64,000 bases of DNA from Nemertoderma westbladi (Eukaryota > Animalia > Xenacoelomorpha). Both the position numbers and the translations under genes were made by a program. The stretch's first letter is position 1. The number at the start of each line of letters is the position of its first letter. The stretch covers positions 1,759 to 65,758 of the forward strand of contig JAUCBJ010006043.1 of NCBI GenBank assembly GCA_032718475.1. Reading direction: 5' to 3'. Under the pieces are notes generated by a model. That model did not search any database. It had not been told where the DNA came from and worked only from the letters and a program-made list of their open reading frames with translations. This document shows positions 1,627-64,000 of this stretch, piece after piece.

Positions 1627-1929
1627 GTACATAGTAGTAGTAGTACACCTGTACATATACCAATACTGGTGAACCGGTACAATAAATAACAGTTGACAGT
1701 CAGTCGGGCACTTTGTCAATATTATGATTTGAAAAGTAAGAAATGTTTTTTTGTAAAGAGAATATCTATTTTAATTAAAATATTGTTGAATCCAACCAAT
1801 CTATATTGTTGTTTGTAATAATTTTAATGATATGTTTTATTGCATGTCAATATTGACATCTAATATCAATATTGACATGAACGCTGGGTTCTTATGTATA
1901 TTTCACCCCCACCAAATTTATTTAGAGGC

Positions 1930-3860
1930 CTTCAAGTAACATCACAAATACTGAAAAGAGCTGTCAAAACGCTTCAGTTAGACAGTTAGAGGCATTCTTG
2001 CTGCATTGTAAATACTGAAAAGAGCTTTTGAAACTATTCAGGCCTTCGCGCAGCATGTTAAATACTGAAAAAGAGCTACTAAAACCGTTCAGAGTCCTTT
2101 GTGCAGCATGATAAATGCCGAAAAGTGCAGTTGAAATTGTTCAGAGGGTTTCATGTATCATGAGAAAAACTGAAAAGAACTGATAAAACTGCCCACGCCC
2201 AGGGGCCTTCACACAGTTTGAAAAATACATAAAAGATCTTTCAAAGCTGCTCAGAGACCTTTGTGCAGCATGATAAACGCCGAAAAGAGATGTTGAAACT
2301 ATTCAGAGCTTTGTGCAGCATGATAAATGCTGAAAAGAGCTGTTGAAACTGTTCAGAGGTCTTCGAGCAGCTTGAGAAGGACTGAAAATAAGTTTTGAAA
2401 CTTTCAGCCTTCGCACAGAATCTGAAATTCTGAAGAGTTGATAAAACTGTTCAGAGTTCTTCATGCAGCATGATAAATGCTGAAAATAACATTTGAAGTT
2501 GTTCAGAGTGCTTTGTGCAATATGAGCATGCCGAAAATAGCTGTTGAAACTGTTGTGAGGCCTTCGTGCAGCATGATAAATGCTGAAAAGAGCTGATAAA
2601 ACTGTTCAGAGTCCTTCATGCAGCATGATAAATGCTGAAAATATCATTTGAAGTTGTTCAGAGGGCTTTGTGCAATATGACAATGTCGAAAATAGCTGTT
2701 GAAACTGTTCAGATGCCTTCGTGAATCATGATAAATGCTGAAAAGGGCTTTTAAAACTGCTAAAAAGGCCTTCATGCAGGATGAGAAATACTGAAAAGAG
2801 CTGATGAAACTGTTCAGAGTCCTTCATGCAGCATGATAAATGCAGCATGATAAATGATAAATGCTGAAAATAACATTTGAAGTTATTCAGTTCAGAGGGC
2901 TTTGTGCAATATGAGAATGCCGAAAATAGCTGTTGAAACTGTTGCAGAAGCCTTCGTGCAGCATGATAAATGCTGAAAAGGGCTGTTAAAACTGCTAAAA
3001 GGCCTTCATGCAGCATGAGAAATATTGAAAAGAGCTGATAAAACTGTTCAGAGTCCTTCATGCAGCATGATAAATGCTGAAAATAACATTTGAAGTTGTT
3101 CAGAGGGCTTTGTGCAATATGAGAATGCCGAAAATAGCTGTTGAAACTGTTCAGATGCCTTCATGCAGCATGATAAATGCTGAAAAGGGCTGTTAAAATT
3201 GCTAAAAAGGCATTCATGCAGCATGATAAATACTGAAAAGAGCTGATAAAACTGTTCAGAGTCCTCAAGGCAGCATGATAAATGCTGAAAATAACATTTG
3301 AAGTTGTTCAGAGGACTTCGTGCAGTATGAGAATGCCGAAAATAGCTGTCGAATCTGTTTAGAGGCTTTCGTGCAGCATGGGAAATGCTGAAAAGAGCTG
3401 TTGAAACTGTTAAAAGCCCTCGTGCAGCATGATAAATATCGAGAAGAGCTCATAAAACTGTTCAGAATCCTTCATGCAGCATGATAAATGCTGAAAAGAC
3501 CAGTTGACATTGTTCCTGAGGGCTTCGTGCAACATGAGAAATGTTGAAAATAGCTGTTAGAACTGTTCAGAGACCTTCATGAGTTCATGCAGCATGATAA
3601 ATGCTGAAATGAGCTGTTTAAATTGTTCAGAGGCCTTTGTGCTGTGCAGCTTGATAAATACTGAAATAGCTGCGAAATTATCCAGGCCTTTGCGCAGCAT
3701 GTGAAATGCTTTGAAACTGTAAAAGGTTTTGAAACTGTTCTGAAGCCTTTGCGATCGTCGCAATTTTCCAACCATGCAGACACGAATTGTTGAAACAATT
3801 CAGAGGCCTTCGTGCAGCATGGGAAATACTGAAAAGGACTGTTGAAACGGTTGATAAGGT
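1930..3860. repeat. Satellite, ~52-bp unit, roughly 35 copies
   Basis: Consensus ~GCAGCATGATAAATGCTGAAAAGAGCTGTTGAAACTGTTCAGAGGCCTTCGT, with a higher-order 3-4-mer pattern at ~2440-3360. ORFs here are spurious. Confidence 0.9.
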
Positions 3861-4822
3861 AGGCCTATACTATGACAGATACTTAAACTGAATGCCAAAT
3901 AATATAAATGATCAGACCACCCTGAAAACATACAGTAGCTGTTAACACTGTAACATGCCAAGCCAATCGCCAATACTGATAAACAACAACTATTATTTAT
4001 TTATTTATTACTTCTTTAATAGCTGAATAGGGGGGGGGGGGGGGGGGGACTGGACGCAATACAAATTATTAGTTTCCAGTTACGAATTCGAGCAATCAGT
4101 GTCAGTTAACCTTTTATCATCAGCGTACCATATCGTAGTTGGTTCGGGGAGACAAAGTAGGCCTACCATATGTTAGAGACCCCCCCCCCCCCCCCCCCCA
4201 CCCCCCGTCTCAAGGCAGCAAGCAGGCAAGGAACCAGAGATGCTAAATTTATTGTTACCAAATTATTAAAAGCTGTTACACAGTGTTAAGTGGATAAGAC
4301 TGTAAGTGTAAGATATATTATAAAAACATTAAGCCTACATGTGATCCAGTAATCAGTCAGTATGTAGCTTTGTCAGGTATAAATTATAGTTCTGTAGTTA
4401 TAGTACTGTAGTATAGTCTGTAGTGGGTAGTCTATAGGGTGGCGTGGCCTAACCCCACACTTCTGTTCTCATCATTACATGTCAATTTTGACATGTACGT
4501 CTATTTTAACATGAGAAAAACTTTAAGTATTTATATTAACTTAACGGCACGGTGAAAACAATTTCCGCACGGTCAAAAGTTTCTAATTTACTTATAAATT
4601 CGATTTTTATATTTAAAAAACACTTCTGGAAATATTTGAACACATCACAGCATCAGGTAAAAAAATGTCAATATTGACATGTCCATGTCAATTTTGACAT
4701 GCCCCATCCTGGAGAAACTAGCTCTACATGTCAATACTGCGTGTAATACTGCAGTTGTTAAAAATTCAGTGCCCCTGAAACCGGAAAGAACCGAAATACC
4801 GGTACGAGTATTAAACAATACA

Positions 4823-8789: not shown

Positions 8790-9426
8790 AGCTAAGCTAG
8801 GTTGTTCCTCTGTATAAAAAGAATAGTAAAGTAGAACCCTGTAATTACAGACCTGTTAGTATCTTAAATATGTATCTATAATTCTAGAACGTTCTGTTTT
8901 TCTACAGCTGGAGGAACATCTTAGTAGGCTAAATCTCATCTATGAACTTCAGTCCGGCTTTCGTAAATCATATTCTACAGACACCTACCTGCCTTATTAA
9001 CTTAACTGATACAATTAGATGTAATAACGCAAAGGGTTTATATACTGGTATGGTAATGTTGGACCTACAAAAGGCTTTCGATACTGTAGATCACGAAATT
9101 CTGCTTGGTAAGTTAGGCCTGATGGGTGTAGGTTCTATAGACTGGTTCAAGTCCTACCTGTCAGACAGAGGTCAAACTGTAGTCATTAGCAAATCGCTGT
9201 CTACTGTACAAGAGATTACCTGTGGTGTACCGCAAGGTAGTATATTAGGTCCTCTGCTTTTTGTATGCTATGTAAATGATATGATAAGTAGTATAGATCC
9301 CGATTTTAAACTCATTTTATATGCCGACGACAGTGCTCTTATTTTCTCTCATAAAGATCATATCCATATTTCCCAAAAGTTAAGTCCAGTTCTAGAATCC
9401 TGTAATGAGTGGTTGGTTGATAATAA
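8790..9426 (+). pseudogene. Inverted fragment of the same LINE RT as 5153-6715
   Basis: Near-identical to the reverse complement of ~5915-6550; has a frameshift; cut abruptly at 9426/9427 where TGTTG begins. Confidence 0.9.
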
Positions 9427-9754
9427 TGTTGCCGTTATCCCTACACCAGGGGGGAAAAACGCCGATGCTGGAGACGTGACTTTACAGACCACCGAGCCCC
9501 GGCCAGTCACCGGATATTGATTGTGGAGAAGGAATGATTTCTGAGATGCAGGGTTGCGGTTGAGAAAAAGCTGCATTAGTTGGATATACTCTTTAATGTA
9601 ACTGAACTCTGTTGAACCTTGTTGAACAATATTGAACCCTGTTGAACCCTGATTGAGAATAATTTTGGGCTTCCCCAAATCAATATACACCAAATATTCA
9701 CAATAATTATACACGACAATATAAATCCCTACAGTATATTATTTAATTACCCAC
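9427..9754. repeat. Probable LTR fragment of another element
   Basis: Begins TGTTG exactly where the LINE fragment breaks; internal TGTTGAAC repeats; abuts the E1 LTR. Confidence 0.4.
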
Positions 9755-10854
9755 TGTTCGCTCGGATTTTAGCCTAACTAATGTTCCCCAGATTTTCCCT
9801 CGGTCCTAGTCTTGATGCCGTAGTGTCGGTGTCGGTCGACCCTGTCGCGTGTCCGTTCCACCCCTCACGAACCCCGAAGGGAACGATCATCGAGAACCAG
9901 CACGGCTTGGCTAAGGGTCGGTCCAGTCGGTAGACTCTGTCGCGTGTCCGTTCCACCCCTCACGAACCCCGAAGGGTTCGATCATCGAGAACCAGAACGG
10001 CTTGGCTAGGGGTCCGTCGGTTCATCGCAGAAACCCAACCACCTAGGCTTTCCGAGTCCCTTTCAGGCTCGTAGTCGCTTCGGCAGCCGAGAAACTGCTC
10101 CGAACAGTCGGTAGGCCAGTAGAGTCTAGTCCTTTGTCTTTCGACCCCGTCGCATGTCCGTCCCACCCCTCATGAACCCCGAAGGGAACGATCATCAAGA
10201 ACCAGTACGACTTGGCTAAGGGGTCTGTCGTCGGTTCCCGTCGCAGATCCCCGGTACAAGCAGTTAGCGTTCCGAGTTCTTTTCAGTCTCGTAATAACTG
10301 CTGTTGACCAGAGACCGCTAAGGGCAGTCCTCGTCAAACCCTTCCTCTGTAAGTCGGTAGACCCTTTCGCGTGTCCGTCCCACCCCTCACGAACCCCGAA
10401 GGGAACGATCATCGAGAACCAGTACGGCTTGGCTAGGGGTCTGTCGTGTCGTTTCCCGTCGCAAATCCCTGACACAAGCAGTCAGCGTTCCGAGTTCTTT
10501 TCAGTCTCGTAATAACTGCTGTTGGCCAGGGACCGCTAAGGGCAGTCCTTGTCCTTTAGGCCTGGCGCGTTACCAAATCCACCTCTACAGGCAGCAGGAA
10601 GTTGGCCAGGGCCTAATAGTAATCAGGCTAACCTGAATACTGCTTGAATTTTCCATCCCCCCTGGCCCTTATAAACATGAAATTAGTCCCGTACCCTGTA
10701 AGTCGCCCCAAAGTTCGCCCATAAATCACCCCCAGTGTATAGAATGTGCCCAAAACCCATGGTCCCGCACCCAGTAGTAATATCGGAATAATCATTTTAA
10801 ATAAATACAAAAAATATTCAACTCGCGTTATAAAAAGTTGAAATACCGCGAACA
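9755..10854 (-). repeat. 3' LTR of E1 (1100 bp)
   Basis: Perfect 7-bp terminal inverted repeat TGTTCGC...GCGAACA; preceded on the minus strand by a G-run PPT (GGGGGGGAC); TTTATAAG near 10670 could be a TATA box. No partner LTR in the window. Confidence 0.75.
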
Positions 10855-10864
10855 GTCCCCCCCA
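10855..10864 (-). promoter_or_regulatory. Polypurine tract of E1
   Basis: Minus strand reads TGGGGGGGAC|TGTTCGCG. Confidence 0.75.
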
Positions 10865-11028
10865 ATGACCTTCGTGAAGTCCGTTGGTAGATTGAGTTTG
10901 CGTAGGTCATTCCCAATATAAAAAACCCAAATTTAATATTGCATAGTTTTAATTAATTTGGCCTAGAGTTTATATATATATGTATAAAAATAAATGTTCG
11001 ATAAATGTTCCTGGAATATCCCGATCCA

Positions 11029-13629
11029 CTATTTCTTTCTCTGATACGCCTTTCGTCTCTTCGCCCGTCGACTCTCATCGATCGCTATAGCTGGTAGAGG
11101 AGCGTCAACATCCATCGTGAGTAACGCTTCGGCTTGTCTCCTGGCGGCTCTTCCTTTCGATGGCATAGGGATCATGTTGGTTCGTCTTTCCAACTCAGAC
11201 TTGCGTGCCTCTAGGAACCACTCTCCGTCACCGAACTCCTCTTTATACGAGTATAATCGTCTAATGACTTCAAATGGACCGAATAATCCGGCGCTCAGTA
11301 GCAGATCCACGTAATGGAAAGGTAGCATGGCCGACGTGTGGAGGCGTTCCGGGAAGGAGAAATACCCGCACGCCATCTCATGCGCGATATTCTGAGCGTT
11401 TCTCCGAACCTTGGTCTTTAAGTGGCTGTTTGCGTATGTTTCAAACATGACCATATTTCCCATAGCGGTTACGTCTTTGGTTGGACATTTGATATAGCAG
11501 CGGGGGCTAGAGGAATGTCCACGGAAACCGCACGTGGTGCAGAGGTTATATAGGATCGGACAGACGGAAACGTCGTGGCCCGATGTCGCGCAGTATGGGC
11601 AATAGAGTATCCCGATGAGCTGGAGGCACGAATCGGTAACCCGATTCCTTCTACCGCGTGGGCACTGCTCCGAACCGCAGTTGCCGCAAACCTCCAATTG
11701 CATCTCTCGACCGGGGAATATCGGAATCGGGAGGCCGACGTAATATTCGAGTCGTCGGTCGCTCTTCGGAATATTCGCGGTGGCCGGTAGCCCGCGGAAT
11801 GCTAGGCTTTTGCGTAGTAGGTTCTCGCTCCGATAACCTTCTTTGTGTCCCGTTGGTCTCAACTCAGACGACCGTTTCTGGCGGTGGATCCATTCAGTTT
11901 GCTCGGCGTACCAGCGGGTTAGTCGCATAGGGTCCTGAGGAACGGAGGGTGTAGTAGCCACCGCTGGTCGGCGAAGAGGTGCTGGGGTTTTCGACGGAGG
12001 GATTCCGAGGAGATCGTCGGGAGTCGGCGCAGCGCTGGGGCCCTTCTCGACCAATATCGCTGAGCGGGTCCGTTGATTGCTGGTACTCGGAATCTCCGAC
12101 GACCAGTCTTCGCCACCCGGGAAAGGATACGGGGATAACCTTTGGCACGTATCGCCGAAGTCGTTTAATGCGAAGGTAGTAACCAACTCCCTCGCAGGGC
12201 TACCGAAGCCGAGTGGTGAGGAAACGCCCGCTTCCGTCGTTGGTTCGGCGGAGGCAACCCGTTTGGCGGCCGGTTGGTAAGCGGCCTCCGGCTCGAGTTG
12301 TCGCTTCGGGGTGGAGAGTAGAACACCCTCGTTTAGCCATATTTCTTCCCCTTCCGAAGAGATCAGAGGCTCCTCCGCACCGAGAAGTTCGGTAATCGTA
12401 GGGATGTCGTAAGGTCCGCTCTCGTCCCAGGAATCGATAACGGCGAGCGTTTTCGTCTCTCCCGGTGTAATGTTCTCGACCGCTTTGAACGCGTGGTTTA
12501 TGACCTCGTTCCAGTCGTAGTCGACGAAGGAAAGGGGAACCGCCGTAATGAGGTTATCGAGAGTCTTACAGATAAACTTAGCGACAGTGTAACACTCCAT
12601 AACGACGTAGATATAGCGCCGTCGATCGGGATTCTCCCACCTTTGGTGTATCGTCCACTTCTGATCAACGTCCTTCCATCGACCCTCTCGCTCACTCTTT
12701 ATTTCTAATCCTGGGTATCCACCATATATTTTATTATAGTCCCGGAATTTCTGGGGTTTGAAGTCGATGCCGCCGTTTAGCACAGCGAGGTAGCCGATCC
12801 TGGATTTCTTCGGTCTCACCTCTTGGAATCCTCGCATGAACTCGGCGAATCGTAACCAGGCTAGTAGCGTTTGAGTGTCGATGCAATGGCTAAGGGCATT
12901 GAGGTCGTCTCGTCGGTTTCTTCCTGAAGGAGCGTTCGCGTAGTCGTTCCGGACGTTCGCCTTGATATCTGACCCGATTTTAATGACGTCGAAGTCGAAG
13001 AGGATCTTCTGGATTTCCGGAGGTAGCAACCAGATTGCTCCGGCTGCCTGCACTTCCTGTCTGGGTGTCGGAAATATTCGACACACCAATACCAAACCGT
13101 CCAGGGTTCCGAGGACGACGACCAAGGATCGACCGTATTCTTTCGCCCCGTACTTTTCTTGGTAGTCGTCGCGATTCTGGATGGTCGATATACGTTCCTC
13201 TCGAAGCGTTGCCGTACACTCCGACAGGTTTCCCCAGTGGGCGAGGTACGTACTCTTGTCGTCGACGAAACTTTGACATCTCGCCAACGTAATCGCTTTC
13301 GAGGTGGGCATTGCGTTTCCCTCATTGTCGTAGATCAAACATCGGGATCTGTAGACGCTCTGCCGGAACGTTTCCCAAAACGACGAATCGTCCCCTCCGG
13401 TTGCCTTTGCATTCCGAGTTCTTTTCAGTCTCGTACTAGCATCAGCTAACCGGAGGGCTCGTAGATTCTTGGAATCCGGTCCCTCTCGCCCGGTGAATTT
13501 AACGACTCGCACGTTCTCATTTAGCAGGGTGCTCCAATTTGTATCAAAGTCAGGGGATCCAGGTTGCGAATATTCCAGTAGATCTATCGTGTTACGTAAT
13601 TCGCCGATAATTTGGCGATTTGGATCCAT
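11029..13629 (-). CDS. Accessory protein: DEDDy 3'-5' exonuclease-like domain, low-complexity linker, tandem CCHC zinc knuckles, basic tail
   Basis: Uninterrupted 866 aa. ExoI-like LIYDNE (D101/E103); LPPEIQKILFDFDVIKIGSDIKAN (ExoII region); CIDTQTL; WENPDRRRYIYVVMECY (ExoIII-like YxxxE); CPYCATSGHDVSVCP-x5-CTTCGFRGH; RRAKRRK. Confidence 0.75.
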   Translation of the reverse strand: MDPNRQIIGELRNTIDLLEYSQPGSPDFDTNWSTLLNENVRVVKFTGREGPDSKNLRALRLADASTRLKRTRNAKATGGDDSSFWETFRQSVYRSRCLIYDNEGNAMPTSKAITLARCQSFVDDKSTYLAHWGNLSECTATLREERISTIQNRDDYQEKYGAKEYGRSLVVVLGTLDGLVLVCRIFPTPRQEVQAAGAIWLLPPEIQKILFDFDVIKIGSDIKANVRNDYANAPSGRNRRDDLNALSHCIDTQTLLAWLRFAEFMRGFQEVRPKKSRIGYLAVLNGGIDFKPQKFRDYNKIYGGYPGLEIKSEREGRWKDVDQKWTIHQRWENPDRRRYIYVVMECYTVAKFICKTLDNLITAVPLSFVDYDWNEVINHAFKAVENITPGETKTLAVIDSWDESGPYDIPTITELLGAEEPLISSEGEEIWLNEGVLLSTPKRQLEPEAAYQPAAKRVASAEPTTEAGVSSPLGFGSPARELVTTFALNDFGDTCQRLSPYPFPGGEDWSSEIPSTSNQRTRSAILVEKGPSAAPTPDDLLGIPPSKTPAPLRRPAVATTPSVPQDPMRLTRWYAEQTEWIHRQKRSSELRPTGHKEGYRSENLLRKSLAFRGLPATANIPKSDRRLEYYVGLPIPIFPGREMQLEVCGNCGSEQCPRGRRNRVTDSCLQLIGILYCPYCATSGHDVSVCPILYNLCTTCGFRGHSSSPRCYIKCPTKDVTAMGNMVMFETYANSHLKTKVRRNAQNIAHEMACGYFSFPERLHTSAMLPFHYVDLLLSAGLFGPFEVIRRLYSYKEEFGDGEWFLEARKSELERRTNMIPMPSKGRAARRQAEALLTMDVDAPLPAIAIDESRRAKRRKAYQRKK

Positions 13630-14176
13630 ATTTACGATTATATCCGTTACAAATTAGATCAGTTAATTATAAGTCCAGAAAGTCTGAAACTATAGCGATA
13701 GCAGAATAATTCAGTTTTTTATTTAATTCAGTTTATTAAATAACATTGCTATATAGACATCTATCATCTTATTGCTAATACATTCAGCATTTACAGTTAC
13801 TATAGCTATACATTAATATCCAACCAGTTTTTTATGACTTTTTTGTCCTTTTCTTTTTTCCAATTCTTTTCTTTAGACTTTTTTATACCTTTTTTTGTCT
13901 TTTTTCATTTCATTATTATTTCATCTCATTTTATTTATTTCCACATATATTTCATCACATTTATTTCCACCATTTATTTCACATTTGTTTATTTCCACAT
14001 CATCATTGGGGTTATAGCCCCCCGGCTATCATCATTTGTTATAAGCGCAACACCAGGGTGCGCATCATTACATTTTCATCATCATACGCGTCACCATTCA
14101 GGTTTATAGTAGAGTTGTCTGATCCTTTTCATCATTTCCAACTACATTCAATCATCTTCTTTGGTTAATCTTTGTC

Positions 14177-14610
14177 GTGGAAGGGGTGTTACGCGGCAAT
14201 CTGGGATCTACAGCTGGACTCGTTACACCGCCTACGCCCCAAACTGCGCACGTAACGGACAATGAAGACGCTGGGAGTGAAGTCACGTGGAGTGCACCAG
14301 GGACCCACCAGAATAACATTCCCAACAACATAAAGCTCAGTCGACGAAGTCATGTGGGATGGGGTTACGCAACATTCTGGGATCTACAGCTGGACTCGTT
14401 ACACCGCCTACGCCCCAAAATCCACGCAACGGTCCCACCAGAATAACGCGACTGAGAAACATAAAACCCTCTATCGTCGAAGTCATGTGGATGCACCATG
14501 GACCCACCAGAATAACGGGATAGAGGGGGTGTTGCGCGGCAATCCGGGATCTACAGCTGGACTCGTTACACCGCCTACGCCCCGAACTGCGCACGCAACG
14601 GACAACATAA
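14177..14610. repeat. Three ~170-bp tandem units with a conserved ~65-nt stem-loop core
   Basis: GGGG...GGGATCTACAGCTGGACTCGTTACACCGCCTACGCCCC at ~14183, ~14361 and ~14526. Confidence 0.85.
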
Positions 14611-14877
14611 CATACTGCGATGAATATAATGAATTCCACTTCAAATCTTTACCATTTCCAATAATCCAATATCGTTGGTCCCGATGACCAAAATCAGGGT
14701 AAACAATACATAAACGACCCTGCGTCAGTCGAAACATCTGCAGGGTGACGCTGGACTCCACATAACACACGAGGAAACACAAATACCATTGCATGGTTAC
14801 AGTTGGTTTAAGGGGGTCCATTTTCATTGTCGATAAATCACAGTTTTATAAGAGTTTGTCAACATGATGAGAAGGGT

Positions 14878-15996
14878 CTAAACGCATTTGTAATTGTCAC
14901 CAATGTCCGCAGCAGGATCTTGAGTAGGGAACTTATCACCTCTCGTAGAGTCACCGCTATCATTGCCTTCGAGAAGGCACAGCCTCTGGATAGGGCGTTG
15001 GTAGTGGCCCTTTTTATAATTGTCACCAATGTCCGCAGCAGGATCTTGAGTAGGGAACTTGTCACCTCTCGTAGAGTCACCGCTGTCATTGCCTTCAAGA
15101 AGGCACAGCCTCTGGATAGGGCGTTGGTAGTGGCCCTTTGCCGTTCGTATCGTCACAGTCCTCGCAAGTCCGTCTTTGCTTGGGTGTATGGTCACGACCC
15201 GCGCCACAGGCCAGTGAACGCGGTCTTTGAGATCTTCTTTTACTAGTACCATGTCGCCAACTGCGACGTTCCGGTATGTGTTGTTCCATTTCCTCCTGGT
15301 CCGGAGGGTTATGAGATACTCCTGGGCCCAGATTCTCCACCAATGCGCTGCCAATGCTTGGGCCTTCTTCCAATTTGTATGTCTCGCGAACTCGCTGGGA
15401 TCTGGGAACATGGTCTCTGGGAGAACATGAGTTTTGGGTCTCCCCAGTAGGTGATTAGGAGTAAGGGACTCAACTGAGGCGTTTGCCATCCAGGTATTAC
15501 GGCAGATTAGTCCGTGCTCTCCCGTTAATGGTGTCAATGTTATCAACGTCATTATTATCATCAACAACCTTATTAGCCACCAAAGCATGGGCAAGCGCCA
15601 ATGTCCGTCTTTGGACGTTGCCTGATCAAAAATGTCGGTACAATATTGATCTTCCTCGGACGGATTCTCGTCCTTCTCGGCAAACTCTCGGGTCTCCACA
15701 TTAAAGCATCCGGTCATCTCCCGCTGGGTTCTCTCAGTCTCAAGGAAAAAATCATCGTCCAGGTCTGTAGCTGAGCAATAACCCACGGAGGTTACATTTT
15801 CTTTAATCTGACATTTAGGAAGGTATGTATAGGTGTCAGTAGTCTCTTCCTTGATGCCACAGAGGGTCCATCCCATTATTGTTCGTTCAGCGTAAAAGCC
15901 GTCATCCTTCTTTATGGATCGGGCGACATCTCCGGTTGGTATGTGTAATTCCGGTGTATCAAGTCCGATCAGTAGGGTGATGCGGTTTACGTCCAA
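14878..15996 (-). pseudogene. pol: E1 pol remnant lacking RT, RNase H and integrase core
   Basis: Pre-RT region (TIMGWTL, WRLPMLW) joined near 15580 to the integrase C-terminus (LTPNHLLG, WWRIWAQEYL, VGDMVLV, YQRPIQRLCLL); last 42 aa duplicated. Confidence 0.85.
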
Positions 15997-16023
15997 CTGC
16001 GGACACCTCAGGTCTACATCGTC

Positions 16024-17599
16024 TCAGTCCAATTGTATGAGGGGGGCGTACTCGGCTGATTGTTGGAACCGCACTCGGAGGTCTGTGTGTACCAAGGCGT
16101 TCTTGATGGTTAACTTAACCGTTTCGTAGCCCTTAATCACTCCTTCCATCTGGAGTTGCACCTCCCCGGACTCTACCTCTCTGTTATCGGTGATGGTTTG
16201 TATGGGCCGTTTACAAGGTTCATATTCTAGGCCGAGTTGCTCGAGGAAATCCCGGTCGATGATGGTTCCGTCGGACCCATTATCAAGGAACGCGAGCGTC
16301 GTCAAGGATTTGCCGACTCCTTGAATCCTTACTGGGATTACCTTTGCGAAGACCATGTAGCGGCGATTTATAAGATTAATCGTGGCCGAAATATTTGTTA
16401 CTTGTGATGCGTTAGTGGAGGTTTTGAACGGGTTGGTTTCTCTCCGTTGGGTTGTCCGGGTTCCTTTAGAAACGTGGTTCGTTTCTCCTCTTCGCTTGGC
16501 TTCGATCCGAAAGGGGAGGGTAGTGAAGTCGAAGTTCGCGGGGATGTGGAGGAGCGTGTGATGACGTAGGTCGTTACAAACCGCACAACACGACCTTTGG
16601 TGGCAATCCCGAACGTAGTGACCTGTTCCAAGACACCGGAAGCATCCTCGGTGTTTCGTAATCGCCTCGAAGCGTGGGACGAGTTCAGCAAACTGGAACT
16701 TTCCGCAGAATTCTAACTTATGTTTCTCTCCGCAGAAGAGACATATAGGGGAGGCTGTGGTGCCTTCCCTTTCGGGTGCCCAATTCGCTAGGTAGCATGC
16801 CCATTCTTCTGCTAAGGTCGGTTCCTCGTAATCCTCGTCATCCGAGTCCTCAGCCATACTGACGGCCATCGCACTCACAGGAGTAGGGTGGAAACTTGGG
16901 TTTGGAGTGGGTGCCCTGCTCTGGTAATTGCTCTCCATTGCGTCCAACTTGGCGAGACTCTGTTTCGAGAACATCGAGTCATTCATGGCTTCGGAGATAT
17001 CGTCCAGGAATGCCGACATTTCGAGGAAGCTGGGATCTTGATCTGGATGTCTGCGCCGGAGATGTACGCATTTATAGGCCCACTTACTTTGCAGCCATCC
17101 GGGGAACTTCCGGGCGATCTGTCGGAGGTTTAGAATGTTGTTCACCTGGTCCTCCTTATTTAAGGGTTTCAGAGTGTAGTAGGCATCCTTCATGGAATCT
17201 GAGAATTCCTGGAGGTTCTGTGGGTCCCCTAGTGATCCCGCGTCTTGTATCAGTTTCTCTAGAGTTTTATTAATTATAGTCCCGGTATTTCCGTATCTTT
17301 TGTCTAGAGTTTTCCATGCGTCATAGTATGCTTCATGAGAACCTCCCTCAAAACAAGCGATGATTCGGCGTGGTTTGTCACCCAGGTATTGCGATAAATA
17401 TACCAGTTTCTGTGCGTCGGCTATGTCCGTTGATCCAATCTGCACAAAGAACCGTTTCTTGAATCTGAGGTAATCGACGGGATCTCCTTCGAAGGTGCGG
17501 ATCTCCATCTTAGGCATGGCAAGGTGGTTCTCCAACGCCCGGATAATACTGATGTCGTCTGAACTGGAGTGACTCAGAGGGTTATAGTTATTGGCACTC
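16024..17599 (-). pseudogene. gag: E1 gag core, zinc knuckles and aspartic protease (5' end missing)
   Basis: PKMEIRTFEGDP (BEL gag core); CLFCGEKH, CFRCLGTGH, CAVCNDLRHHTLLH; LDNGSDGT. Fused at 17600 to an unrelated LINE fragment, which creates the chimeric 658-aa ORF call. Confidence 0.85.
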
Positions 17600-19494
17600 A
17601 CATTTGTCGTGGTTAAAAAGAAGTTGCCACAATTTGCTCCAGCGGTCCAGGACATCCAAATCACTTTGTAGTAGGGCAATAGATGTGATGTTCCTGGGGT
17701 CGAATATAGCGCTTTGAGGTCATTGGTGAAAAGATGAATGAGTAGAGTTGGAACATCATTCACATATCCAAGTAATAGGAAAACTCCAGCAACACTTCCC
17801 TGAGGAACACCATTGTCAAAATGTAGCCACAGTGATGCTTTCCCACTGATGACCACGGGTTGGTATCTACAAGATAGAAAGACCTGAAACCAATTTAATA
17901 ACTTGCCAGTTATTCCAAGGGCCTGCAAATTGACAATCAGTCTCTGGTGTGGCACTGAATCAAAGGCTTTCTCTAAGTCCAAGTACACATCGATGCACAT
18001 GCGATCATCTAGTACTTTGAACCAATGGAAGATACAATCAAGTAGTTGCAGAGGGCATGATCGCCATTTCTGCTTTTCTGGAAACAGTATTGGTCATAGG
18101 GTATATATAAGGTTATTTCCCTTCATGTTGCTGTATGTTTCATTGACAATATTTCGTTCCATAAGTTTGCAGACCACTAATGTTAGACTGATAGATGTTA
18201 AGTTTTCACACAAATATTTACTACCATTCTTAAATTGTGGGGAAATGTTGGCGAGCTTCCAAACAACTGTCTGGTAGCGGTCCTTCATTCATTGACTTAT
18301 TAAATAATGAAGCCAGGGGTAAGCCTTTATCTCGTTATTGGCCCCGATAAAGTTGGTACCTTTATCTGATCGCATGGTGTTGCTAGTCCCAAAGCGAGCG
18401 ATTTGTCGGCGTAGGCTGAGTATGAAACTATTAGTAGATAAATCATTCACCATGTCCAGATGAATCGCTCTTACAAAGTCATAAAGTCTTACGAAGTCTT
18501 ACAAACAAATATAACGCACCATCGCTTGACTATAGTTCGAGCGCGGTACACTTCAATAGGGCCAAATAAATCCACACCAGTGTTAGTAAAGGGTGGTTCA
18601 TAACAGCTTACTCTTTCCCTAGGTAATTCTGCCTCTCGCTGGGTTAAAGGCCTAATGCTTTCCTACAGGGTATGCAGTTCCTAAGAACTTGGTTTAGTGC
18701 TTTACGTGGCTTATAAAAATAATAGCGCATTCTAACTTCGCTAAGAAGTCGTTCCCTACTTGCATGATAAAGATTACTATGGACATCTACAATCATCTTG
18801 ATTTGTATTTCAAGATTTTTGATGATGATGGGGTACTTAGTGTCAAAGGAAAGTGGTACATTAGTTAATCTCCCTCCAACACGTATGAGTCTGTCAAACA
18901 TCATACTGGACAAAGAATCCTTTAAGTGCATCTGCGGATTTTTCATCAGCAGGAAATGCTTCTCAGGATCATCATGGCACTGTAGAAGCCTCAGTAGTTG
19001 CTTATTGGTATTGTCATGCTCCTGATGCGTGATCTTGTCCGTTAAAAACTGTGAATTTCTTTAGTCTTGGAATAATGGTGGTGGAAAAGCCGTTTCAAAT
19101 ACGTGATTGCTTTACAATGTCTATTCCAAGCTCTCTTCACTAGTGGTGAGAGTCCTTTAGAGACATCAGGTATCCCAGTCTTCCAATCTTGGTTCTGAAA
19201 ATAGGCCACAGTCCCGTTCGGGGTTCGTGGTGTGGCATCATTGTTGTCATCGGCAGCGTGTAGAATCGATAGATCGAGCATCGGTTTAAACAGCTTGGAT
19301 TTACTCGTCCGCATCTTTGGCTTAACAGTTTCCGCTCCCTTGGCTTGTCTGATCTCGGCAGTGGTGAGATGGGGGGGGGGGGGGCATTCCTCTTCTCCTT
19401 TACTCAGGAAGTCGGGGCCACCTAGGCAATCTGGTGTCTCAGTTAGTTCCTTGGGTGTAGCTCCTCTGGAGGCTATGACAGCAGGATTAATAGT
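17600..19494 (-). repeat. Left arm of a ~1.9-kb inverted duplication (BEL integrase remnant plus LINE RT remnant)
   Basis: Reverse complement of 27913-29829 with few differences; contains RVGGRL, GVDLFGP, LDLEKAFDSVPH and GVPQGS. Confidence 0.9.
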
Positions 19495-30104: not shown

Positions 30105-30633
30105 TGTTAGCTTATTCAATCCCGCTAACACCCCATAAAGTTAAGCCGATAAGCAATATTGGGGGCCACGAGATTGGGTAATCACCAACTCGTGTCACCC
30201 CAACAAAATGGGAAGGAGAAACACAATAAGGGTAAGGGGCCAAACCCCTAACAGAGAGAGAACAGGTGGAGTGAACGGGAACACTCCAAAGGGTGCCAAC
30301 AAGGGTATCAACCAATCAGAGGGGGGAAAGGCATCGATTAGGTAGAGTAACAAGGCCAACCCATGCAATATAGCCAGTTGGCAGTAATCATTTTACTCAG
30401 TTATCTCAGTATCATATTGGTGCTAGTTAGGTTAGTTAGTTTAGCTAGGGAAGGACCGGGACTTTAATTACCGTATCCCACCTTCCGTGTACGACATCAT
30501 ATATCTATATCTGTATCTTATACCTGAACATTATACGTGACAAACAACGTAAACCCTTTCACTCTTCACACACGGCGGGGACGCGTGAATTAACAAACCG
30601 GATAAACCGGGATTCTCCCTGGATCCCGTCACA
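30105..30633 (+). repeat. E2 5' LTR
   Basis: Matches 48663-49191; about 8 substitutions counted by eye. Confidence 0.95.
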
Positions 30634-35767: not shown

Positions 35768-36030
35768 TATAGCGTACTCATGGTTTTAGAGAATACTATA
35801 GTGATTCAATGTATTAAAGATTCCACTAGGTGGTGTTAGCGATGTAAAAGTTTGATTCTTTGCCAAGTTGTGTAGTAGTTATTCAATGGTATATTGTTTT
35901 TTCTATTGTTGTTGTGGAGTTAACCTATTGCAAGTATTCAATATGTAAGTTAATTAAATTGTTTTCAAGCTAATAAATTTATCATTTTATTTTATACATA
36001 ATTTGTGATCAAAGAGATAAGATCACTAAA

Positions 36031-41745: not shown

Positions 41746-42402
41746 ATTTATTAAATTGTCTAATTAGAAATGTTAATTATTGAACTAAGTGTAAAATTAA
41801 CTATTTGTGGGATTCGTAATATTCATACTATATCATATGGTTTTGTTCTAAGTTTTATAATTAAAACAAGGTTTAATTAAGAATTTTAACTTGAGATTTA
41901 TAGTGAAGTGAAGTTTAAGATCTCAAACTGCACTACATAATACGTAAGTTACATTAATTGTATTAACATTTGCGTTAAATTGAAGCTATTCGTATCATTT
42001 ATGTGAGCATGTAAATATTGTATATTATTATTTTTTAGTATTTTGGTGACAGTTATCAATATAGTGATACGAATTGATTTTACATATTGTGTTTCAAAAG
42101 TAAATAAACTTACATAATACAGTTTACAGGGGAGTATAGCGTACTCATGGTTTTAGAGAATACTATAGTGATTCAATGTATTAAAGATTCCACTAGGTGG
42201 TGTTAGCGATGTAAAAGTTTGATTCTTTGCCAAGTTGTGTAGTATTTATTCAATGGTATATTGTTTTTTCTATTGTTGTTGTGGAGTTAACCTATTGCAA
42301 GTATTCAATATGTAAGTTAATTAAATTGTTTTCAAGCTAATAAATTTATCATTTTATTTTATACATAATTTGTGATCAAAGAGATAAGATCACTAAAATC
42401 CC

Positions 42403-46645: not shown

Positions 46646-47025
46646 GTGAGAGATAGAGATAGAGGTAGTAGGGTATATAAAAGATATAGATATTAGTTAG
46701 CAGTTAGTAGCGAGAGGGGGGCATATGAGTACAGCTGGGTAAATCGTGTGGCCACGCGACGCATACTGCTGTACTGCACAGGCCCACAGAGTAGGCCAGA
46801 ATGTGGATTAGGAGATAGAATAATCCATAGGCAGTAGCAAGTAATAGGAAACAGTAAGGTAGTAGGATTAAAATCAGATCAAAACAAATAGGATAGATAG
46901 GGCTAAGAAGGGGAACAAATTATGGTAACAGTAATAAGAAAATATAGGCTATTTAACTCAGAAATTCAGAAAGAGATAGGCCATCGAACTGAACTTAAAC
47001 CACCTAAACCCATCACTCATCACGT

Positions 47026-47973
47026 TTGCGCCTTGGCAAGGCACCACCTACTGGTGAGCGATCGGGCAGAGTTCGAGATGGCAGGCAAACTAGATGGGAG
47101 AGGAGAGAAGCAGAAGAGAGGGAGGAGGAAGCTAGGGCGCAGAGCTACGGCTTTGAGGAACAAACGACCTTAGACGAACTTCGTTGGGCTTCGTCAGGGA
47201 GTTCGGGGGAGTCTCTAGGGAAAGAACTGGGGTGGACGGTGGGATCACTGAGACAGTCGACGTCGGGATTGCAAGCGATGCCCATACCAGCGGGCGCCGA
47301 GGGCGATCAACCGCAAAGGAAGCTAGGGGAGCTTGAGGAATGGAGAGTTACGGGCAAGAACCAAGGTGGGAAGGGACATAGTGGGTCCACCGAGATACCG
47401 GGGTTGGGACCACTGCGAGAGGAGGACGAGGACGACGACGAGTTCGGAGAGATGCCGCCCATCGAGAGGATAGGCCACTCGGACACGGACTGGGTTGGCG
47501 GGAGGGTGGTGACGGCCAGTGGGGCGAGAGCCTTCTGGGACAAACCCGGCAAGCGGGCCTGGGTGCACGAGGGGCCGGCGATGGATTTCGCCGGGAGCAC
47601 TATCAGGTTGGGCAAGCAACCGGGGACGGCACCACGGGTAGTATTCGGAGAGACGATGCCCGGGAGGGGCGAGGAGATCGACGTAGACAGGGACGCTAAC
47701 GTCCAGAAGTTCGCCTATCAGCGACTCCACAGACCGCGGAGATCGCTTGGGATGAAAGACGACGTGGGGCGGGAGACATTGGTACTCGGTTGCGACTACT
47801 GTGGGAGACAGACCCACCAGGAAAGGAGCTGTTTGTACCGGTTCCAGAAAGGGACCAGCTGTCTCTACTGCCACGAGACGAGCCACAGGATGGGAGCGTG
47901 TCCACGGTTGCAGAACCGATGTCCGAAGTGCAACTTTCGGGGACACCACGGACGCCAAGGAGGGATGGACTGA
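47026..47973 (+). CDS. E2 accessory ORF with three zinc-knuckle motifs (possibly truncated)
   Basis: CDYCGRQTHQERSC and CLYCHETSHRMGACPRLQNRCPKCNFRGH, matching the E1 and E4 accessory motif; start codon uncertain. Confidence 0.7.
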   Translation: MRLGKAPPTGERSGRVRDGRQTRWERREAEEREEEARAQSYGFEEQTTLDELRWASSGSSGESLGKELGWTVGSLRQSTSGLQAMPIPAGAEGDQPQRKLGELEEWRVTGKNQGGKGHSGSTEIPGLGPLREEDEDDDEFGEMPPIERIGHSDTDWVGGRVVTASGARAFWDKPGKRAWVHEGPAMDFAGSTIRLGKQPGTAPRVVFGETMPGRGEEIDVDRDANVQKFAYQRLHRPRRSLGMKDDVGRETLVLGCDYCGRQTHQERSCLYRFQKGTSCLYCHETSHRMGACPRLQNRCPKCNFRGHHGRQGGMD

Positions 47974-48662: not shown

Positions 48663-49191
48663 TGTTAGCTTATTCAATCCCGCTAACACCCCATAAAGTT
48701 AAGCCGATAAGCAATATTGGGGGCCACGAGATTGGGTGATCACCAACTCATGTCACCCCAACAAAATGGGAAGGAGAAACACAATAAGGGTCAGGGGCCA
48801 AACCCCTAACAGAGAGAGAACAGGTGGAGTGAACGGGAACACTCCAAAGGGCGCCAACAAGGGTATCAACCAATCAGAGGGGGGAAAGGCATCGATTAGG
48901 TAGAGTAACAAGGCCAACCCGTGCAATATAGCCAGTTGGCAGTAATCATTTTACTCAGTTATCTCAGTATCATATTGGTGCTAGTTAGGTTAGTTAGTTT
49001 AGCTAGGGAAGGACCGGGACTTTAATTACCGTATCCCGCCTTCCGTGTACGACATCATATATCTATATCTGTATCTTATACCTGAACATTATACGCGACA
49101 AACAACGTAAACCCTTTCACTCTTCACACACGGCGGGGACGCGTGAATTAACAAACCGGATAAACCGGGATCCTCCCTGGATCCCGTCACA
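48663..49191 (+). repeat. E2 3' LTR
   Basis: TGTTAG...GTCACA, preceded by PPT and followed by the TSD. Confidence 0.95.
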
Positions 49192-49267: not shown

Positions 49268-49366
49268 AGATAGATAGATAGATAGATTTATTTATACATT
49301 ATGTAAAAACAATAACAAATACACCAAACAATGTACCGGTATAAAGGTATTGTCCAACATAACACA
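49268..49366 (-). repeat. Extreme 3' end of the 4823-6812 LINE family
   Basis: (GATA)n plus ~80 bp near-identical to ~4838-4913. Confidence 0.85.
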
Positions 49367-49795
49367 TAGACTATGCCTCAGTGAGGCATAGTCTAAGCCT
49401 CAGTGAGTCATAGTCTATGCCTCAGTGAGGCATAGTCTATGCCTCAGTGAGTCATAGTCTATGCCTCAGTGCCCCAGTGAGGCATAGTCTATGCCTCAGT
49501 GAGGCATAGTCTATGCCTCAGTGAGTCATAGTCTATGCCTCAGTGCCTCAGTGAGGCATAGTCTATGCCTCAGTGCCTCAGTGAAGCATAGTCTATGCCT
49601 CAGTGAGTCATAGTCTATGCCTCAGTGCCTCAGTGAGGCAGAGTCTATGCCTCAGTGAGGCATAGTCTATGCCTCAGTGCCTCAATGAGGCATAGTCTAT
49701 GCCTCAGTGAGGCATAGTCTATGCCTCAGTGCCTCAATGAGGCATAGTCTATGCCTCAGTGAGTCATAGTCTATGCCTCAGTGAGGCATAGTCTG
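49367..49795. repeat. Minisatellite, ~22-bp unit
   Basis: CATAGTCTATGCCTCAGTGAGG repeats with GCCTCAGT sub-duplications. Confidence 0.9.
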
Positions 49796-49862
49796 TGTCA
49801 GGTCTTAAATGAGAGTCTTACAAATTCGAACGTCAACGAACAAATTCGATGGTTACTGTTAC

Positions 49863-50195: not shown

Positions 50196-51325
50196 TGTTC
50201 GCGCTTTTAGACCTAATTTAGGTGTCTTTTAGTTTGTAAATCGACTTTAGCCTACGACGAGTATTTGATACACTACATTAGCCGAAGCCAGCCTATGCGC
50301 GATCATTCACCCGCTGGATATACCCGGGAGACTGGATTCGGGGGCTCTGACCTTATTGCGGTGTAGGCCTATTGTATTATTCGATTGATCGTTAATATAT
50401 AATCTCTGACAAATATTATTCACTTTTGGGAAATATTAACAGTTCCCTTTGGACGTGGCGCTCTAAATATATAAACAGAGCTATGACTTACACTAAACAC
50501 AACGGGATGGCTAATGATTCACGTATAAGGCGCATTCTTTAGGAGATGCTTTGTTATCTGTCACAGTCATGCACACTACCGGTACCGCACAATACTGCAC
50601 ACTGATCTGCCGACCTTCACTAATTTTAGTCACATATAAAGAGAACAGCAATTGACCCATGTAGTAACTATGAAATAGCATTAGATTCACTCCAAAACCA
50701 ATATCATATAAGTCGCAATTGCTATATGTAACCGGTCTCTTACCTTCAGTATATCAAGAAGATGGGGTTTTATGATTATTTCTTGATATTATCCAAATAT
50801 AACAATTTTCCATCAACAGATACAATTAATAACCGACAGTAAATAGCAGTAAAATAATGCGGTGAAAGATATGTATAGCATTTGACAGGCAGGATAACAG
50901 TTATACGTTCCGGTAATCAAAGCCGTTCTAATGTTTTGGCTAAAGTCTGAAACAGAATAATTCCATAGCCGATGTTCATGGCATCAGGAAAACCAACACA
51001 CTGAAACCTGTGGGCTGTTGTAGGCAGCTTTCAACACAAAGAGAAATAGCTCTCATTGGCAGAACTCCAGATTCTATAGGTTCCACGAACGTCTAAATGC
51101 CAAACCTCCCTAGCCTTTGCAGCCCATAGCCAACACAAGGCTAAATCGCTCTGATTGGTCGATCATTGTTCTGATTGGTTAATCGAACAGAACAAACAGC
51201 AAATCGGCCAATCAGCCAGCAGAATGCATCACTCGAGCAAGGCAGTTTTAGAGTATTTGAGCGCATTGAGGGAAAACTGGATTGCGGAGAAAAAGGGCCA
51301 GTTACATCCTGCAAAAGCTTTTACA
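50196..51325 (-). repeat. E3 3' LTR (1130 bp)
   Basis: Near-identical to 60174-61335 apart from two short indels. Confidence 0.93.
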
Positions 51326-51403
51326 CCGCTCCCAGAAAATGGGATTTAATTCTATAAAATATAAAAAATCACAGTTTCTAAAATATAAAAATACTCTAAA
51401 CAG

Positions 51404-52730
51404 TCAGTCTCTCCCGCGCGGACGGCGTTTACGCAGTTTTTTGAGGCTAGCGAGAGTCCTTTTCTCTTTGGGGCGAGCCACTTTACTAGGAGGGCTATAA
51501 CTCCTGGGCGAAGGGTGCAATACCATTGCATCAGAAGGTTAGGGTTACGGTCTGTGTCTCGTCCATTTCGATATGCTTCTCCTCGAGCTGATTTTCCTCC
51601 GCTTGTCGTTGGATGTGTCCGTCCAAAAATTCTCGCGGAGAATAGGGTCGTCCAAGTTCGATAACTTCTTAGAGATTCTGGTCACTCTGGTGACAGGTTG
51701 TATCGGTGTTAAACCGGGACGATGGCAAGGGTCAAACGGCGACATTAAATGTCCGCATCCCAATCCGGCTAGGTAGGATGGGCTAATATCTAGGAAGACC
51801 ACAACCGGGGTGCCACCGACTAACTCTTCAGGTAACACTAGATCTTTGAACAGTGAGTACAGCTCGGGAGGATCCGTCATACTAATAGGATCAAGAGTCT
51901 GAGGTCTCACTAGGGAATGAGGAGGTCTGATCGAGTATTCCGGAACTCTGATCATTGGTTTATTTAAGGATCGTCTGAGTCGAACGAGCGTAGGTGATAC
52001 GTCAAACAAATTTCGCTCGAAACTCCCGTAAGTATAGCGAGTAAAACCGTGTTTAGTGCAACGTCTCCGCGGATGTTTAGGTCTTTCCGTTTGTTGGTTG
52101 GGTCTAGGGCACCATCGCAATAATACCAAAGATGCACGTCTTGTAGGGGAAACGCGAGTGATCTCTCTCCAGTTCACAACACTCCCCCATCTGCTCGAAG
52201 CCATCTGGTACAACAGGTAGCGGTCGATCGGCGGTAAGATACATCATAGTGGAACAGAGCCGCTTGAGTTCCACCATGCGGTCATGATGTATACCTTGAG
52301 GATATCGAGTTTCTAGATTCTGTTGACTGGTAATATTGAGATATGTTTCTCTCAAGAATTCCAGATATTTGTTGAAGTCGCTGCGTTTATCCGGCTCTTC
52401 AACATCTTCACTTTCGAGTCGGTTTCGAATAGAATTTTCGTGTTCGAGTCTCAGTTTATCGTTCCGCTTCCGCTGGGTATGATATTTAAATAAAACCATT
52501 TCCCTTTCGGTGTCTATATCGTCCGTATCGTGTAGGTCGATAGGATGACCAGTAGTTAAGAAGTCCATATACGTACCATTACGATGCGTATAGCGAGCGG
52601 TGAATTTTCTATAGTCCAACTCACGCGTGAGCTGCTCTTGGGACATTGGTGGTTCAATATAACGACCATCGTCCTCCGCAGCAGTTGGACCAGCATCGCC
52701 GCGTATTAAGCTATCAACAAACGCCTGCAA
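51404..52730 (-). pseudogene. E3 accessory ORF, frameshifted
   Basis: C-terminal ~45 codons nearly identical to the E4 ORF end (PSDA..LHPSPRSYSPPSKVARPKEKRTLAS.KKLRKRRPR); N-terminal AAEDDGRYIEPP resembles E4 AARVDGILVEPP. Confidence 0.65.
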
Positions 52731-53613: not shown

Positions 53614-53900
53614 TTATTCCAGAACATGTCTGGGGACTAGGATCCTTGATTCTAGGAAATTGGTCTTTTTAAGAATATCGGTAAGTGCTACGATATCTTA
53701 ATAGACTAGAATTTTAAAGGATCTAAAATTTGACAGATTTTGTAAATATTAATAATTAATATTTAGGATGGGCACCAGTTTATTCCAGAACTTGTCTGGG
53801 GACGTTAACCACTGATTCTAGAATTTTGTCTTTCAAGTATATCGGTGGGTGCCGCGATATCTTAATCGACTAGAATTGCAGATGGTCAAAGGGTTTAACA
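53614..53900. repeat. Two diverged ~115-nt multi-stem repeats
   Basis: TTATTCCAGAAC.TGTCTGGGGAC...ATTCTAG...ATATCG-loop-CGATAT...CTAGAAT at 53614 and 53780. Confidence 0.8.
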
Positions 53901-62943: not shown

Positions 62944-64000
62944 TTAGTCTTTCTTGCGCGGACGGCGTTTACGCAGTTTTTTGAAGCTAGCAAGAGTCCT
63001 TTTCTCTTTGGGGCGAGCCACTTTACTAGGAGGGCTATAACTCCTGGGTGAAGGGTGCAATATGATTGCATCAGAAGGTATGGGATTGCGATCGGTATAT
63101 CCGCCGGTCGAAGTACCGGGTTGATGGACATCAACGTCCGGGGAGAGGGGTCTAACGGCTTTGAGAGCTCGTTTCAAGACAGCCGCTCTTACGGGTCCTT
63201 TACGAGTGGTCTGAACGAGGGCCGTGGGTGGACCATAGGCAGTTAGAAACTTCCTTGGTTTAATGGTTCTTTCTAACTCGCGTTCGCGGGCTCGATACTC
63301 GTAAGGCCGTCGATATACCTCTTGTAACTCAGGGTGTGAGTTGACGAATAAGTCTCCATAGGCAGGGTCTTGACGGATAAAGTTTATTAAGTTGTAAGAC
63401 TGGATGTCACTCGGATTAATGCTCCTGAGAAATTTACGCACATATTTGGTTGAAATACATTCTCCAACGCGCTTCAATAGTTCATAACTTGATAGGCGCG
63501 ATTTCTGCTCGACGGAGGCAAACAAATATGGATGGAACGCATAAACTCCTTCATAGGCGCGTCCGGGATAATAGCGATGGCGTGAGTCACAATGTAAATC
63601 AGCGTTCGCTTCCCAAGCTCTTATATAACGTAGTACAATCATTTCATCTACGCTCTCTAAATCATGGTTAAAGGGACAATCAAAGCTGGCGTGTCCTTTT
63701 AATTGACAATGATGGCATTGAGTCATAAATTGGGGGCAGACGGCAAAAATGTGCAAATTATTAAGCCGACAATATGCACAATAGATTTCCATCGACGGTT
63801 GCTCGTGGAAATAAGAACAAAGATCGTTGGTGTCCATAGACGTAATAAGGGTGATCTTTAATTCCATAAAAAGAGTTCTGTAAAGGTCTAGCGCGTATGT
63901 TGACATCGTGTACCATACGACGGACAAGATCCGCTCGATTGTCCGGAGGTTCAACGAGTATACCGTCAACTCGAGCGGCCTCGATTGGCGGACGCTGTAA
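62944..64000 (-). CDS. E4 accessory ORF with tandem zinc knuckles (runs off the window; probable frameshift near 63800)
   Basis: CAYCRLNNLHIFAVCPQFMTQCHHCQLKGHASFDC; WEANADLH resembles E1 FETYANSH; basic C-terminal tail. Confidence 0.7.
   Translation of the reverse strand, partial: YSVRQSRPLELTVYSLNLRTIERILSVVWYTMSTYALDLYRTLFMELKITLITSMDTNDLCSYFHEQPSMEIYCAYCRLNNLHIFAVCPQFMTQCHHCQLKGHASFDCPFNHDLESVDEMIVLRYIRAWEANADLHCDSRHRYYPGRAYEGVYAFHPYLFASVEQKSRLSSYELLKRVGECISTKYVRKFLRSINPSDIQSYNLINFIRQDPAYGDLFVNSHPELQEVYRRPYEYRARERELERTIKPRKFLTAYGPPTALVQTTRKGPVRAAVLKRALKAVRPLSPDVDVHQPGTSTGGYTDRNPIPSDAIILHPSPRSYSPPSKVARPKEKRTLASFKKLRKRRPRKKD

Follow-up and report, generated by a model that had tools for sequence, protein, structure and literature searches.

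A predicted DEDDy-like exonuclease domain joined to zinc knuckles in an extra gene of a Nemertoderma westbladi BEL/Pao retrotransposon

Within a 64,000-nucleotide (nt) stretch of the genome of the xenacoelomorph Nemertoderma westbladi (contig JAUCBJ010006043.1; the whole stretch is referred to here as the window), an uninterrupted open reading frame (ORF) of 866 amino acids (aa), designated ORF3 and encoding protein P0001, sits between the integrase C-terminus (DUF5641) and the 3' long terminal repeat (LTR) of a multi-copy BEL/Pao element, BEL/Pao elements being metazoan (PMC8742986). From its N-terminus the protein presents, in order, IYDNE (D101/E103), VVVLGTLDGLVLV, LPPEI, VIKIGSDIKAN (N225), IDTQTL, IGYLA, YVVME (Y341/E345), CCHC knuckles and a basic tail (Table 1). 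An earlier, sequence-only reading of this DNA had named these motifs in this order and proposed a domain of the DEDDy/WRN/EXD2/RNase D kind, joined to CCHC knuckles, as an extra BEL/Pao gene. The analyses described below support that proposal: the motifs exceed chance expectation both in the scoring of the ExoI window (first of 848) and in a profile search (E=2.6e-18), and the positions assigned to ExoI, ExoII and ExoIII were right.

Table 1. Coordinates of ORF3, its parts, its host element and homologous reading frames in the window
Feature	Position	Strand	Remarks
ORF3 (P0001), 866 aa	11029..13629	-	Without any Pfam family at E<=1
Predicted DEDDy-like 3'-5' exonuclease domain, aa ~82-390	12460..13386	-	
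ExoI strand, D101 and E103	13321..13341	-	Top of 848 windows against four relatives
~55-aa insertion after ExoI (region aa ~104-166)	13132..13320	-	E-INS-i alignment; common to other copies
ExoII motif, D-x4-K-x7-[D]	12955..12996	-	Asn225 in window copy, acidic in others
IDTQxL motif	12865..12882	-	Also present in RNase D, P0002 and P0005
ExoIII, Y341-x3-E345	12595..12609	-	Glu likewise in P0002 and P0005
Low-complexity linker, aa 393-640	11710..12453	-	46% P/S/T/E/A; unconserved
Three knuckle-like units	11485..11688	-	C648-C668 degenerate; 677-690 canonical CX2CX4HX4C; 697-711 CX2CX4HX5C
Conserved predicted helical module after knuckles	11230..11484	-	FE-x-[FYW]A...T..R...G[FY]F; no Pfam family
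Basic C-terminal tail, putatively like a nuclear localization signal (NLS)	11032..11073	-	
BEL/Pao gag-protease (DUF1759, CCHC, aspartyl protease)	16024..17595	-	5' end cut by fragment of a long interspersed nuclear element (LINE); DUF1759 E 1.5e-14
pol remnant: protease end, start of reverse transcriptase (RT) region, integrase C-terminus/DUF5641	14878..16023	-	Pfam DUF5641 E 6e-31
Three ~83-nt hairpin repeats between pol and ORF3	14180..14605	-	z ~ -3 for two copies folded
Polypurine-tract-like G run before LTR	10855..10863	-	Layout as in element B
3' LTR, TGTT (10854)...AACA (9427)	9427..10854	-	Placed in LINE RT fragment; structured internal repeats
Element B knuckle ORF3 homolog, without exonuclease domain	47008..47970	+	Profile E 1.6e-12
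Element E knuckle and helical-module ORF3 homolog, upstream of LTR-like repeat	62947..63999	-	E 7e-10; runs off window edge

A full phmmer scan of 1.84 billion representative proteins (E<=0.001) recovered seven relatives of P0001, all of them unnamed or 'hypothetical' and from short contigs, to which a profile search added P0012, a protein close to P0006. Word-indexed searching with P0001 found no relative among 7994 candidates and, with profile A2, recovered only P0006 and P0012 among longer proteins and only P0002 among those of near-equal length; no loci related to ORF3 were found in viral contigs or metagenome contigs. The C-terminal module, in which three knuckle-like units are followed by a predicted helical portion, is common to all seven relatives and is the best-conserved part of the family, the profile of which matches HIV-1 nucleocapsid (E 4.5e-4) and the knuckles of the trypanosome RNase D, TbRND (7C42; E 0.039). 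An N-terminal domain alignable with that of P0001 is present in four of the seven (P0002, P0003, P0005 and P0006, the match to P0003 being weak), and the last 30 aa hold 8-14 lysine or arginine residues in seven of the ten family proteins examined. P0003 carries the knuckle and helical module twice in tandem, behind a degenerate exonuclease-like domain. A conserved transmembrane anchor, a trait of env-like ORF3 products, was not found in P0001, P0002 or P0005; the sole hydrophobic peak of P0001 is a predicted beta hairpin (aa 168-186) that is unmatched in the other two.

Three lines of evidence, namely the seven relatives, register tests against RNase D and a language-model search, support assignment of the N-terminal domain to a DEDDy-like class. 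Firstly, a profile built from the four domain-bearing relatives, with P0001 left out, recovers P0001 at E=2.6e-18 when the window, translated in six frames, is searched as 1027 segments. When an 18-aa ExoI window was scored against the same four proteins (P0012 being omitted as a near-duplicate), D101 ranked first with a score of 46, the next position scoring 9 (mean -76, standard deviation 25). Secondly, P0001, P0002 and P0005 can each be placed in gapless register with E. coli RNase D, the motif labels of which we take to be the standard ones, through D-x4-K-x7-[D/N], IDTQxL and Y-x3-[D/E]. Thirdly, the language-model search of the Atlas with aa 80-390 returned PF01612 clusters (score 0.92; 24 of 30 matches with that family set), and the same search with P0002 returned first a Euglenozoan cluster combining PF01612 with zf-CCHC (0.86) and second an EXD1-like cluster (0.77).

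Several results weigh against this assignment. Nothing reached threshold for the domain in Pfam, NCBIfam or PHROGs, and the match to PF01612 to which the sequence-only reading had looked was not obtained: P0001 has no Pfam match, and P0002 reaches PF01612 only at E=0.2 (11.9 bits, the threshold being 23.6). Among PDB profiles EXD2 was matched at E=0.74, last of four, 7C42 not being among them; hhalign gave RNase D a probability of 15%, and in the register comparison RNase D ranked sixth of 2001 against its own shuffles. In the Atlas row 161 of 256 features are shared, where true family members typically reach 170, and the three top-ranked matches are unnamed clusters; moreover, shuffled proteins attain an Atlas score of 0.9 in 4-10 of 100 trials. 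Standard MAFFT puts D101 at ExoI in only one of 30 settings per mode. AlphaFold returned no usable fold either from the single sequence (predicted local distance difference test, pLDDT, 34.1) or from A7, an alignment of five sequences picked for placing D101 at ExoI (34.6), and Foldseek and VIA-align (best Z 4.0) on a model of pLDDT ~34 are uninformative, not negative. With these points weighed, a DEDDy-like fold in the N-terminal domain of ORF3 is judged highly probable. By sequence the domain is DEDDy-like and not a strict member of the group, having Glu at ExoIII, a score below the PF01612 threshold and a fold that is predicted.

The condition of the active site can be followed in other copies of the element. 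Four public runs of one organism (three samples) were mapped to positions 9000-18200, a fifth, X6, being compared as well, and the 40 best supported of 176 differences at 12440-13640 (aa 1-396) were listed. The ExoI D-x-E, which closes a hydrophobic strand, corresponds to D101/E103, and none of the 40 listed differences falls in these codons. Alignments A1, A2 and A6 had suggested loss of ExoI by deletion in the window copy, a possibility that was rejected in favor of an insertion after an intact ExoI on three grounds: the ExoI window score; the E-INS-i alignment, which places ExoI before the ~55-aa insertion, P0006 having an insertion at the same loop; and two contigs of run X4 (12929-14033 and 12890-13563) that are colinear across it. 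At ExoII the window copy has Asn225, the residue named by the sequence-only reading; it is Asn225, and not the nearby D229, that holds the K-x7-D register. In five runs (X1-X4 and X6) nearly all of the depth at this codon differs from the window (23,368 of 23,376 in X1), the codon present being acidic, and the acidic residue is also found in P0002 and P0005. Asn225 is therefore private to the window copy and not a family trait. The earlier suggestion of an altered or inactive nuclease consequently holds for the window's own copy, which is likely crippled by this Asn, and does not clearly hold for the family. At ExoIII the Tyr is present but Glu replaces Asp in all three of P0001, P0002 and P0005. 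The Glu had been noted correctly; being common to the three it is a shared family trait, giving the signature D-E-D-E, and not a sign of decay. All four acidic positions are complete in two of the four domain-bearing relatives (P0002 and P0005) and in other copies of the window's element.

Differences among copies further indicate that the domain has been maintained as protein. Of the 40 listed, 30 are silent, as against 33.5% expected for random transitions (p=1e-7), 30 fall in third positions, and none creates a stop codon. Likewise, a contig only 82% identical, with 122 differences in ~674 nt, keeps the reading frame, its sole listed indel being 3 nt long. The exonuclease domain is thus under purifying selection.

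The element that carries ORF3 is incomplete in the window. It lacks RT, RNase H and the integrase core, which have been deleted or displaced, and the pol of a second element, element B, matches it only at 15477-15091 by tblastn; no 5' LTR was found within the 64 kb, and the copy is without paired LTRs and a target-site duplication. At 1.43 kb the 3' LTR slightly exceeds the 0.2-1.2 kb given for the group (PMC8742986). Run X1 placed 11,359 contig pieces on the mapped region, with summed depth of 14,600-46,900 over gag, the pol remnant and ORF3, 58,000-116,000 over the LTR, and 330-370 just past 17596; summed depth does not equal copy number, and what the step marks is a multi-copy unit with ORF3 inside. 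At 15447-15753 the X1 depth falls to 3,500, with loose ends in the dip (15471-15769), indicating that most copies differ from the window copy at the pol deletion. Contigs of run X4 join the start of ORF3 to the upstream spacer (12929-14033) and its end to the LTR (10827-11121), while across 14033-14878, which no listed contig spans, ORF3 and pol are linked by even depth only. Run X6, RNA only by guess, covers part of ORF3 at depth 3-4 and has no bearing on expression either way.

Several structured sequences accompany the gene. The hairpin repeats of the spacer between pol and ORF3 match no Rfam family and could affect ORF3 expression; ARAGORN found no tRNA. A stretch of 24 nt within ORF3 coding DNA (13412-13435) is matched exactly by two internal LTR repeats (10270-10293 and 10488-10511), where, on the element sense strand, it caps a long stem-loop (z -3.9 and -3.4); a cis-acting RNA signal or a template-switch relic are possible explanations. 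The LTR further contains, at 9831-10553, a ~100-nt unit that bears a UUCG-capped hairpin and is present in four copies, and a second unit present in three, with no Rfam match. Two inverted duplications of mixed BEL/Pao and LINE fragments, 97-98% identical (17597-19494/27913-29832 and 5916-6555/8780-9426), lie beside the element or interrupt it, which suggests that the locus was recently rearranged or is misassembled.

That BEL/Pao elements carry this gene family as cargo is shown directly by element B, which retains RT, RNase H, the integrase core, paired LTRs (30105-30633 and 48663-49191, 98.5% identical) and a 5-bp target-site duplication, and in which a knuckle ORF3 lies between pol and the 3' LTR. 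Both B and element E have the module of knuckles and helices with no nuclease domain attached. The gag of element B has a very long low-complexity N-terminus. A further BEL/Pao element, C, is nested in B; its LTRs (35768-36030 and 42135-42397) are 99.6% identical, and its pol is not followed by an additional ORF. Element D (50212-61335, minus strand) has 1.1-kb LTRs (97.9%), a BEL/Pao gag-protease and a deleted pol, and its frameshifted extra ORF (~52760-51355) shares a basic tail with the ORF3 of element E and has no match to the knuckle profile. A satellite of 52-nt period and a 22/30-nt palindromic tandem array occupy 1896-3867 and 49300-49819.

Exonuclease cargo of this general kind has been described before. 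DEDDy ORF3s occur in the bdelloid LTR retrotransposons Vesta and Juno and in Athena elements; in them DEDD has become DEED, catalytic residues are intact, variation inside the genome is close to neutral, and no assay is reported (Rodriguez et al., 2017, PMC5408684). DEDDy domains are also reported for Terminons (PMC6431247) and Dada DNA transposons (PMC3706591), and in a later opinion paper a DnaQ-like domain figures among the known accessory domains of LTR elements (PMC6338049). ORF3 of the window resembles the bdelloid genes in being an extra ORF after pol of an LTR element, in its RNase D/WRN/mut-7-like domain, in the change of one acidic position to Glu, and in its restriction to some families. 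It differs in its BEL/Pao host, in its D-E-D-E signature as compared to the DEED given in the text of the bdelloid paper (PMC5408684), in its fusion to three knuckles, a helical module and a basic tail (630-1040 aa in the window family) and in its purifying selection, the two being compared by description only. Dada likewise encodes a DEDDy exonuclease, but it is a DNA transposon with the domain inside its transposase and all four DEDD residues.

Outside of transposons, a close architectural parallel is TbRND, in which CCHC fingers placed after a 3'-5' Exo domain bind U-rich RNA and hold the RNA upstream of its 3' end (PMC7797062); the enzyme itself is reported to prefer U (PMC3357391). The N-terminal Exo domain and C-terminal fingers are arranged as in ORF3. 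TbRND differs in being a cellular enzyme of the mitochondrion and in having four fingers and a linker of 28 aa, as against the ~250-aa linker and the extra helical module of ORF3. No significant Exo-domain match links the two, 7C42 being matched via its knuckles only, so the shared layout may be convergent. EXD2, WRN, Nibbler, Mut-7 and EXD1 (PF01612) share motif order and spacing with ORF3 but differ in that ORF3 falls below the Pfam threshold, has Glu at ExoIII and a long insertion after ExoI, and is transposon-borne. Env-like third genes of BEL/Pao elements occupy the same site, between pol and the 3' LTR, and differ from ORF3, which has no conserved membrane segment and a soluble nucleic-acid-binding architecture. 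The claim that no such gene is a standard BEL/Pao component agrees with the profile of the International Committee on Taxonomy of Viruses (ICTV), which names only an env-like third gene (PMC8742986); its novelty is lessened by the bdelloid DEDDy ORF3s (PMC5408684) and the exonuclease-CCHC layout of TbRND (PMC7797062). The word 'exonuclease' is absent from the main text, in its available part, of a 62-genome BEL/Pao survey (PMC3118150), and among literature titles and abstract openings there is no report of a DEDDy gene in BEL/Pao; Repbase, Dfam and GyDB lie outside this scope and may annotate one.

The reading of ORF3 that we favor, with a probability of roughly 0.45, is that of an accessory 3'-to-5' exonuclease acting on RNA, by analogy with trypanosome RNase D, which has a similar build. 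Expressed from a subgenomic message, the protein would hold single-stranded RNA by its zinc knuckles while its predicted D-E-D-E two-metal site would remove nucleotides at the RNA 3' end; metal binding and catalysis would proceed with Glu at ExoIII, and RNA, not DNA, would be the substrate. The Klenow ExoIII substitution D501E keeps part of the activity, a point not relied upon here. Uridylation is known as a means of restricting retrotransposons. The target is the least certain step: the most likely use would be in safeguarding or maturing the RNA of the element, whether by removal of 3' tails that the host adds or by trimming of the small RNAs of host silencing. In a bolder and rather improbable form, a BEL/Pao lineage across several animal hosts would encode a knuckle-guided D-E-D-E counter-silencing ribonuclease that strips host-added 3' tails or destroys piwi-interacting and small interfering RNAs, built on an undescribed knuckle-plus-helix module that would itself be a widespread BEL/Pao accessory gene.

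Further observations count against an active exonuclease and lend themselves to its main rival, in which a DEDDy fold, catalytically dead or weak, serves as an RNA-binding adaptor in the manner of EXD1, Maelstrom or Egalitarian, while the knuckle module does the main job of ribonucleoprotein assembly, packaging or transport of element RNA. The acidic residues are lost in two of the four domain-bearing relatives, P0003 and P0006 (P0012 being as P0006), and the knuckle module occurs with no exonuclease domain in three of the seven database relatives (P0004/P0009, P0007 and P0008/P0010) and in element B, so that the wider family can do without the nuclease. Additionally, Glu at ExoIII in three of three proteins and the large insertion after ExoI fit an adaptor, and EXD1 and Maelstrom provide precedents as inactive DEDD derivatives (PMC5408684). 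Set against these points, three lineages that are only 26-33% identical have all retained the Tyr along with four acidic positions. Without metal binding this joint retention is difficult to account for, and on balance the adaptor is considered a less than probable alternative.

A DNA 3'-5' exonuclease acting in the nucleus to proofread or trim cDNA ends or integration intermediates, as proposed for Dada, would suit the conserved basic NLS-like tail, the weak match to EXD2 and the Dada precedent itself (PMC3706591); yet retroviral-type CCHC knuckles typically bind single-stranded RNA, ORF3 is separate from pol, and most BEL/Pao elements (PMC8742986), element C of the window included, are without such a gene, making this explanation distinctly improbable. 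Least probable of all is a coincidental resemblance, or a neutral passenger or env-like gene of other function, for which speak the want of curated-threshold matches in Pfam, NCBIfam and PHROGs and of a usable fold, and against which stand four motifs in RNase D order and spacing in three divergent proteins, the return of PF01612 by both Atlas queries, purifying selection and the lack of a conserved membrane segment.

Beyond gag and pol, an env-like gene is the most that has been described for BEL/Pao elements; ORF3 is a third gene of another kind, conserved and under selection. DEDDy cargo itself is already known from bdelloid LTR elements, from which the BEL/Pao host and the fusion to knuckles and helices set ORF3 apart, and BEL/Pao becomes a second LTR superfamily with an acquired DEDDy-like domain. 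Acquisition of such a domain by two LTR superfamilies suggests a recurring need. In the ORF3 family, intact, degenerate and domain-less forms occur naturally under selection, and with them it may be tested directly whether animal retrotransposons carry enzymes that work on RNA ends, small-RNA silencing included among the possible targets.

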